Part shown: one piece after another, positions 2,067-3,218 of the stretch
How positions within the stretch are numbered: position 1 is the first letter of the stretch
Layout of the letters: each line of letters begins with the position of its first letter
Source of the DNA: a virus
Lineage: Duplodnaviria > Heunggongvirae > Uroviricota > Caudoviricetes
Virus record (IMG/VR): IMGVR_UViG_2537562191_000040
Location: 1-13,968 of that record
Direction: 5' to 3' (one strand)
Length of the DNA: 13,968 nucleotides
The notes under the pieces: model-generated
Databases searched by the model: none
Told to the model about the DNA's origin: nothing
Seen by the model: the letters and a program-made list of their open reading frames with translations, nothing else
Position numbers and translations under genes: made by a program

Positions 2067-3218
2067 ATGAATGTAATAGATTTGTTTTCTGGCGTTGGAG
2101 GTCTAAGTCTTGGTGCTGCACGTGCTGGATTTGATGTTAAAATGGCAGTTGAAATTGATCAACATGCTATTAATACTCACGCAATTAATTTTCCAAGAAG
2201 TTTGCACGTCCAAGAAGATGTTTCTTTACTAAATGCAGAAATAATTAAGGGTTTTTTTAAAAACGATATGCCCATAGATGGTATTATTGGCGGTCCTCCG
2301 TGCCAAGGATTTAGTTCAATAGGCAAGGGGAATCCTGATGATAGCAGGAATCAGCTTTACATGCATTTCTACCGTTTAGTATCAGAATTACAGCCATTAT
2401 TCTTTTTGGCAGAAAATGTTCCAGGTATTATGCAAGAGAAATATTCTGGCATTAGAAATAAAGCATTTAATTTGGTTAGCGGTGATTATGATATTCTTGA
2501 TCCCATCAAGGTAAAAGCATCTGATTATGGTGCTCCAACTATTCGAACTAGATATTTTTTTATCGGTGTAAAAAAATCATTGAAGCTTGATATTTCAGAT
2601 GAAGTATTTATGCCTAAAATGATTGATCCGGTTACTGTAAAAGATGCTTTGTATGGATTACCAGATATTATCGATGCCAATTGGCAATCAGACTCTGAGA
2701 GTTGGCGAACAATTAAAAAAGATCGAAAAGGGGGATTTTATGAAAAATTATGGGGGCAGATCCCTCGGAATGTTGGTGATACAGAATCGATCGCTAAGTT
2801 AAAAAATAATATCATATCTGGATGTACCGGAACATTACATAGCAAAATCGTCCAAGAGCGTTATGCTTCCTTATCTTTTGGGGAAACTGATAAAATTTCA
2901 AGATCTACAAGATTAGATCCAAATGGTTTTTGCCCGACTTTAAGGGCGGGAACCGCTAGAGATAAAGGAAGCTTTCAAGCCGTCAGGCCGATCCACCCTT
3001 ATCATCCAAGAGTGATTACACCAAGAGAAGCTGCTAGATTACAAGGCTTCCCTGATTGGTTTCGCTTTCATGTAACTAAATGGCATAGTTTCAGACAAAT
3101 AGGAAATAGCGTGTCACCAATAGTTGCTGAATATATATTAAAGGGGCTGTACAATTTATTAAATAAAAGAGTACAGCCCGAATATTTAAACCATAATTCT
3201 TTGGAAGTTAGGGTATAA
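2067..3218 (+). CDS. DNA (cytosine-5)-methyltransferase (383 aa)
   Basis: Carries the canonical m5C methyltransferase motifs: motif I DLFSGVGG (AdoMet binding), motif IV GGPPCQGFS (catalytic Pro-Cys), motif VI ENV, and C-terminal motifs around RxxTPREAARLQGFPDWF and GNSV, with a variable target-recognition region between them. Confidence 0.9.
   Translation: MNVIDLFSGVGGLSLGAARAGFDVKMAVEIDQHAINTHAINFPRSLHVQEDVSLLNAEIIKGFFKNDMPIDGIIGGPPCQGFSSIGKGNPDDSRNQLYMHFYRLVSELQPLFFLAENVPGIMQEKYSGIRNKAFNLVSGDYDILDPIKVKASDYGAPTIRTRYFFIGVKKSLKLDISDEVFMPKMIDPVTVKDALYGLPDIIDANWQSDSESWRTIKKDRKGGFYEKLWGQIPRNVGDTESIAKLKNNIISGCTGTLHSKIVQERYASLSFGETDKISRSTRLDPNGFCPTLRAGTARDKGSFQAVRPIHPYHPRVITPREAARLQGFPDWFRFHVTKWHSFRQIGNSVSPIVAEYILKGLYNLLNKRVQPEYLNHNSLEVRV

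Follow-up and report, generated by a model that had tools for sequence, protein, structure and literature searches.

Convergent genes in Escherichia coli often end at hairpin elements and have overlapping 3' ends, with pausing and polymerase collision completing termination (bioRxiv 10.1101/2022.10.23.513370). In the same bacterium, a terminator placed late in a translated gene, or within about 10-17 nucleotides (nt) of a stop codon, is repressed by ribosomes, and full activity is reached from about 30 nt (PMC4824070). The locus described here lies in an E. coli O157:H7 prophage, where the genes of a mobile three-gene cassette meet tail to tail. It is part of a 13,968-nt stretch of Caudoviricetes DNA (IMG/VR record IMGVR_UViG_2537562191_000040, positions 1 to 13,968), hereafter the window, and consists of a plus-strand gene for a C5 DNA methyltransferase, dcm, which faces a minus-strand operon encoding a MORC-like ATPase and, downstream of it, a protein of the Methyltransf_35 family, called the partner below. 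The genes for Dcm and the partner share their final 33 bp, and hairpins A and B stand just outside the shared segment on either side. We favour, with a probability of roughly 0.6, the view that the junction is a compact convergent-termination layout in which reciprocally embedded hairpins define and stabilise the two transcript ends.

The nearest described counterparts are the overlapping bidirectional terminators (Wang et al., bioRxiv 10.1101/2022.10.23.513370, and Ju et al. 2019 as cited there). The likeness lies in a convergent gene pair with a hairpin element at its junction, in hairpins that lack a canonical U-tract, in overlapping 3' ends, which here are predicted, and in polymerase pausing or collision as a plausible contributor. 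However, the present junction has no intergenic DNA, and instead of one shared element it has two strand-biased hairpins that are separated by about 100 nt and each lie within the coding sequence of the opposing gene. The principle of masking by ribosomes is the one described by Li et al. (NAR 2016, PMC4824070), but their terminator was an engineered lambda tR2, whereas the pair proposed here would be natural and reciprocal.

Another comparison is with restriction-modification (R-M) systems under antisense control, such as EcoRI and Eco29kI (PMC3141266, review PMC12707154), which are likewise mobile methyltransferase systems in which transcription from opposite directions could keep modification and the effector in balance. 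In those systems the R-M genes lie on the same strand, and reverse promoters inside the R gene produce an antisense RNA that covers the R translation start. In contrast, the locus described here has complementarity at the 3' ends only, no standout internal reverse promoter and no restriction endonuclease. A preliminary description of this DNA had likened the layout to that of some R-M systems; the documented antisense circuits, however, work in another way. In gene content, the locus resembles the prokaryotic MORC and paraMORC systems (Iyer, Abhiman & Aravind 2008, PMC2292703), which combine a GHKL and S5 ATPase with a neighbouring DNA cytosine methylase and occur in mobile elements and defence islands (compare L049 and L053; loci are cited by L numbers). 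Vsr is sometimes present as well (L016). According to the same paper, about 70% of these neighbourhoods hold a superfamily II helicase and most hold a nuclease. Here the DNA methylase is present in the neighbourhood, but no superfamily II helicase or endonuclease was found in the low-GC island at 1750-5900 or in the orthologous cassettes, and the ATPase is always paired with Methyltransf_35. A term search of the paper returned no passage on this pairing.

A shared coding segment flanked by two conserved hairpins

The listing of open reading frames (ORFs) gives a plus-strand ORF of 383 residues (2067..3218) whose end converges with that of a minus-strand ORF of 330 residues (3186..4178). The plus-strand stop, TAA, is at 3216-3218 and the minus-strand stop, TAA as read on that strand, at 3186-3188, which leaves an overlap of 33 bp. 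NCBI PGAP annotation of the identical sequence in EDL933 (L001) has the same two ends (6368-7519 on the plus and 7487-8476 on the minus strand), bearing out the overlap noted in the preliminary description. The further claim made there, that the two transcripts overlap of necessity, is supported: the two mRNAs must share complementary 3' ends, with a predicted length of about 165 nt. The remark that no terminator intervenes fares less well. It is literally true, as a terminator scan of the overlap was empty, and trivially so, because overlapping stops leave no space between them; yet it misleads, since two strong and conserved hairpins lie just outside the overlap (Table 1).

Hairpin A is an inverted repeat with 14-nt arms and a 9-bp core (GGGCUGUAC/GUACAGCCC), which folds on the minus strand at -17.2 kcal/mol (z -3.3 against shuffles). 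Hairpin B is a perfect 10-nt inverted repeat forming a stem of 10-12 bp, at -18.7 kcal/mol on the plus strand (z -5.2). Both are G+C-rich stem-loops of the kind found in canonical intrinsic terminators, and when 50-nt folds across the cassette were ranked by stability, A and B were the top two on the minus strand and within the top four on the plus strand. In a comparison of ten loci, representing nine distinct lineages, both structures persist while their sequences change. For A, 93% of cells over 12 pairs are paired and 9 of the 12 pairs show compensatory double changes, a result that 0 of 500 shuffles reach; for B, the corresponding values are 91% over 12 pairs, 4 of 12 pairs with double changes, and 0-2 of 500 shuffles. 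The signal collapses for both hairpins in slide controls. A core of the form GCTGTRC...GYACAGC is common to hairpin A of most lineages.

The two hairpins also differ in the strand on which they pair. Read on minus-strand RNA, A has 15 G-U cells against 0 A-C, and B, read on plus-strand RNA, has 17 G-U against 4 A-C. On the strength of this asymmetry, A is taken to belong to the transcript of the ATPase-Methyltransf_35 operon and B to that of dcm. Hairpin B is absent (about -6 versus -18.7 kcal/mol) from orthologues of the same length that have no dcm overlap (L013, L051 and L015). Two other stable plus-strand hairpins, each of about -19 kcal/mol, were considered and rejected: they lie within 2925-2974, in dcm, and within 3950-3999, antisense to the partner, and orthologous loci lack them. 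They are probably fortuitous, and their loss in orthologues supports the specificity of the conservation seen for A and B. No known RNA family was found within the cassette by Rfam, all four of whose matches in the window lie elsewhere.

Table 1. Coordinates of the features at and around the junction, in window numbering.
Feature	Position	Strand	Remarks
Convergent coding overlap, 33 bp	3186..3218	both	every codon of the dcm frame is exactly antisense to a codon of the partner frame
dcm	2067..3218	+	Pfam PF00145, TIGR00675, PADLOC type II MTase models, PGAP; locus tags from PMC1890555
Minus-strand features	3186..4175 and 4175..5566	-	
Hairpin A, 3' hairpin of the ATPase-Methyltransf_35 operon	3144..3179	-	starts 6 nt past the partner stop; inside dcm codons ~360-371
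Hairpin B, 3' hairpin of the dcm transcript	3276..3307	+	starts 58 nt past the dcm stop; inside partner codons ~291-300 (KLPDKEAYQAA)
Dcm C-terminal extension, ~20 residues past the conserved domain	3151..3218	+	runs through hairpin A and on opposite the final 10 codons of the partner
dcm stop, TAA	3216..3218	+	antisense of partner Leu320 codon TTA
Candidate sigma-70 promoter for dcm, TTAAAA-18-TATAAT, TG before second hexamer	2005..2034	+	consensus scan, 10/12 matches
Candidate sigma-70 promoter for the ATPase-Methyltransf_35 operon, TTGACT-16-TAAAAT	5619..5646	-	consensus scan, 10/12 matches

Origin and selection of the overlap

An identical 33-bp overlap is present in all enterobacterial-clade loci examined (L007-L012, L017, L029-31, L035-37 and L050), across partner-protein identities of 58-100%. 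Elsewhere the geometry varies. Tail-to-tail loci overlap by 19 bp (L002) or 42 bp (L039) or are separated by gaps of 2, 21, 23, 31, 58 or 60 bp, and the genes follow one another on the same strand in L018, L032, L005, L049, L052 and L044. A prophage of Yersinia enterocolitica (L015) carries the cassette in a form without overlap. Like the present locus, it carries the orthologous trio in convergent order within a lambdoid prophage, and a hairpin starts 6 nt past the partner stop. In contrast, its Dcm is intact at 367 residues and has no tail, and its 58-bp spacer holds one perfect 13-bp hairpin at the position of A, with no counterpart of B. A further arrangement was observed in a clade of about 55% identity (L013, 6001-10249; L051, 4001-8264), where the operon faces a C5 methylase followed by a second HATPase_c_3 protein, of 608 residues, across a gap of 218-284 bp; either the cassette has a four-gene variant here or two systems lie stacked.

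The fixed length of the overlap follows from the tail of Dcm. At loci without an overlap, Dcm orthologues end about 20 residues sooner, shortly after the last conserved helix, and the tail is restricted to the overlap clade. Its first 12 or so residues (3151-3185), which code for the loop and right arm of hairpin A, are highly variable. Its last 10 or so, LxHxxLE[VI]R[VI], are what results when the invariant C-terminus of the partner, YRLYPNFQRIMV (LYPNFQRIMV), is read in antisense. The tail was therefore rejected as a conserved functional peptide, its first part being variable and its second being dictated by the antisense of the partner. Nevertheless, the frame has been kept open: among the nine lineages the variable part of the tail contains no in-frame stop, compared with 13 stops in one of the other frames and 9 in the remaining one (loci with an open tail include L007, L009, L011, L017, L029, L030, L037 and L050). 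None of the partner's later residues has TTA, CTA or TCA among its codons, so a stop could first occur opposite Leu320, and the overlap is fixed at 33 bp because the Dcm tail reads through hairpin A to just this site. Thirty-three bp is thus the minimum overlap possible once dcm enters the partner in this register.

This geometry has left its mark on codon usage in the partner. The Leu320 codon is TTA or CTA in all nine overlap lineages, and among 17 invariant leucine columns it is the sole one that is YTA throughout; the other 16 score between 2 and 7 of 9, and the overall fraction of TTA and CTA is 0.53. CTG, a rare codon, is concentrated at Leu291, within the stem of B, a choice that keeps the RNA stem just as the Leu320 codons keep the antisense stop. 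Synonymous sites elsewhere in the partner gene are thoroughly scrambled. The constraint on the Leu320 codon, together with the open tail, thus places the geometry under selection from both strands.

Competing accounts of the junction

On the convergent-termination account, the Dcm frame of one enterobacterial clade would have lost its ancestral stop and run through hairpin A into the last codons of the partner. In the plus direction, hairpin A would then lie inside the translated dcm frame, where ribosomes should mask it, and hairpin B, well placed at 58 nt past the stop, would serve the dcm transcript and be masked in its turn within the translated frame of the partner. Each hairpin would work in one direction only, exposed in the untranslated trailer of its own mRNA and hidden by ribosomes in the opposing one, and the layout would curb read-through of each unit into the other. 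Termination or stabilisation by the hairpins, masking by ribosomes, and whatever regulatory role the shared segment may have are what we infer from this arrangement.

Several observations weigh against this account. The run of U that follows hairpin A is 3-5 nt long in most lineages and is lacking altogether in L009, and hairpin B is followed by UUUACUAU, so that neither has a canonical U-tract; a consensus terminator scan called neither hairpin and left the junction empty. We set the scan result aside because the scan is limited by its U-tract rule, and inverted-repeat search and folding did find the hairpins. Moreover, convergent E. coli genes are reported to have non-canonical hairpin elements, with which short U-runs and a missed call are in keeping. 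Another point is the position of hairpin A, which starts only 6 nt past the partner stop, a distance at which termination was largely repressed in PMC4824070, so that A is probably leaky or chiefly a stabiliser. Pure insulation also leaves unexplained why the Dcm tail frame stays open when its peptide is not conserved. Finally, the nine lineages have a common ancestry, and the counts given above do not represent independent events.

The hairpins, if leaky, together with the selected geometry leave room for the account implied by the preliminary description, in which the overlap is a selected regulatory device: convergent transcription, with antisense pairing of the shared 3' ends, would let colliding RNA polymerases, or RNase III cutting the duplex, tie expression of the methyltransferase to that of the effector operon, much as in the safety circuits of R-M or toxin-antitoxin systems. 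We think this unlikely. Relatives of the trio manage with gaps of 2-60 bp or with genes in same-strand order, which means that interference is not a requirement conserved across the family, and the conserved, strand-specific hairpins that follow each stop look like the outcome of selection to end transcripts rather than to lengthen antisense RNA. In addition, antisense circuits documented in R-M systems are aimed at the 5' end or ribosome-binding site of the restriction mRNA by way of internal reverse promoters, not at a 3' overlap. Internal reverse promoters of the EcoRI type were looked for here; the 19 promoter-like sites in the region are indistinguishable from chance (17.3 +/- 3.8 in shuffles) and none is notable; for the same reason, the dcm promoter in Table 1 is a candidate only.

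Still less probable, in our judgement, is neutral compaction, that is, an accidental loss of the dcm stop by deletion or point mutation in a small mobile cassette pressed to remain short, the overlap being kept only since changes to doubly coding sequence are costly, with the hairpins as ordinary stabilisers. Such a history would suit a tail that is unconserved as protein save for the part dictated by the partner, an overlap that is the smallest its register permits, and a cassette that moves as a unit between sites. It does not readily explain, however, why hairpin B exists only where the overlap exists, and the synonymous sites of Leu320 and the open dcm tail point to selection specific to the layout, which, to judge from the scrambled synonymous sites elsewhere, has had ample time to decay. 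The inverted repeats could also act at the level of DNA, as operators for proteins, as recombination sites or as clusters of methyltransferase targets, given that both are inverted repeats in the duplex and that most lineages share the core of A. This we regard as highly improbable: the sequences covary rather than stay fixed, the tolerance of G-U with A-C rare or absent is the signature of strand-specific RNA pairing, and the cassette has no gene for a DNA-binding regulator, as seen in both the ORF listing and the EDL933 annotation.

Beyond the convergent-termination layout lies a more speculative extension, which we rate as low as neutral compaction. The embedded hairpins, the open Dcm tail and the fixed Leu320 stop might together form a selected mutual-attenuation switch, in which ribosome traffic on one mRNA gates termination by the polymerase transcribing the other. 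If so, a segment of about 165 nt would set the ratio of the methyltransferase to a nuclease-free effector made of a MORC ATPase and a methyltransferase, and the switch would be the safety circuit of a widespread, prophage-borne epigenetic defence system. Overlaps between convergent genes tend to be written off as compaction or as noise in the annotation, but the comparison of lineages points here to a single short segment under selection on both of its strands. The junction therefore offers a natural test case for whether translation can gate the direction in which a terminator works, and for how far convergent units interfere with each other.

The cassette and its setting

The plus-strand product is a C5 DNA methyltransferase (Pfam DNA_methylase PF00145, E=2.6e-61, residues 1-361 of 383), also matched by TIGR00675 and the PADLOC MTase_II models. 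The partner belongs to Pfam Methyltransf_35, "putative O-methyltransferase" (E=2e-89), and has a Rossmann methyltransferase-like fold; it is translationally coupled to the gene upstream, which encodes a MORC-like ATPase with a GHKL and S5-fold module. The minus-strand proteins had no match among the 2023 PADLOC models or in a PDB sequence search, and NCBIfam gave one weak histidine-kinase match, on the GHKL domain of the ATPase. No nuclease fold or restriction endonuclease domain was found in the partner or the ATPase by Pfam, PADLOC, PDB sequence search or fold checks. The methyltransferase assignment in the preliminary description thus holds for the plus strand, but the "putative restriction" role given to the minus strand is unsupported at the domain level, because no nuclease fold is seen and the partner is itself methyltransferase-like. 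In terms of type II R-M systems, the DNA methyltransferase is there but a recognisable cognate nuclease is not, and the cassette is not a classical R-M pair; it consists of a C5 methylase, a MORC-like ATPase and a second protein of methyltransferase fold. Full-text literature searches on "Methyltransf_35" and "PF20553" found no papers, and a search of the literature on bacterial MORC defence found nothing on the Dcm/ATPase/Methyltransf_35 trio. Published arrays and proteomes do detect products of the locus, which along with the Pfam matches marks both overlapping genes as genuine, and ECs1954 and ECs1955 drop together more than 4-fold at the transition to stationary phase (PMC2241611); from this joint change we conclude that both units are active in lysogens.

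The cassette has a wide distribution. The Methyltransf_35 family comprises 2213 clusters at 50% identity, and a search with the ATPase returned more than 5400 relatives. For genomic context, loci were gathered mostly by exact-protein look-ups and by viral and metagenome scans, with 5 loci coming from a genome-contig scan. The ATPase-Methyltransf_35 pair is conserved, usually together with a C5 methylase, in Klebsiella, Enterobacter, Yersinia, Leptospira (with Vsr nearby), Azoarcus, Smithella and Spirochaetales, and Dcm adjoins the pair in most of about 30 distinct loci, from E. coli to Leptospira, Azoarcus, Smithella and a Pseudomonas inovirus. No dcm was found near the pair in L047, L041, L006 and L045, the last two being truncated loci. 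The cassette travels as a unit among different prophage and chromosomal sites. The uncharacterised trio, whose range extends from prophages of E. coli O157:H7 to Leptospira and to inoviruses of Pseudomonas, sits in the company of known defence genes. In one case, the trio sits inside a type I R-M locus (L049, 1-11416), and in another in the accessory region of the filamentous Pseudomonas inovirus PfAC20 (L052, 280-3711). On the Microvirga plasmid NZ_CP102847 (L053, 1-8981), the pair without dcm stands between an MmeI-like type IIL enzyme and the DISARM gene drmA. In the cyanobacterium Scytonema (L047/L048, 5001-7438), the pair has no adjacent intact dcm and only small ORFs are present downstream on the opposite strand; this form could be a decayed methylase or a version that does not depend on one.

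Elsewhere in the window, Rfam matches STnc100 at 8668-8860 on the plus strand and AgvB (anti-GcvB) at 8861-8922 on the minus strand, tail to tail, and two tRNAs lie upstream of them (7646-7718 and 7822-7895; the matching EDL933 region is annotated with tRNA-Ile and tRNA-Arg), a set typical of late-region cargo in lambdoid prophages of enterohaemorrhagic E. coli. An ORF at 132-770 on the plus strand resembles an integrase-core or insertion-sequence-type transposase. As the EDL933 prophage copy annotates no transposase anywhere upstream of dcm, the window seems to derive from a copy of the prophage that carries an additional insertion. A module of the hok/sok type may lie on the left margin of the low-GC island, at 1700-1815, which Rfam does not call at the gathering threshold but which shares about 94% identity with the sokW antisense RNA region of phage 933W and related Stx phages.
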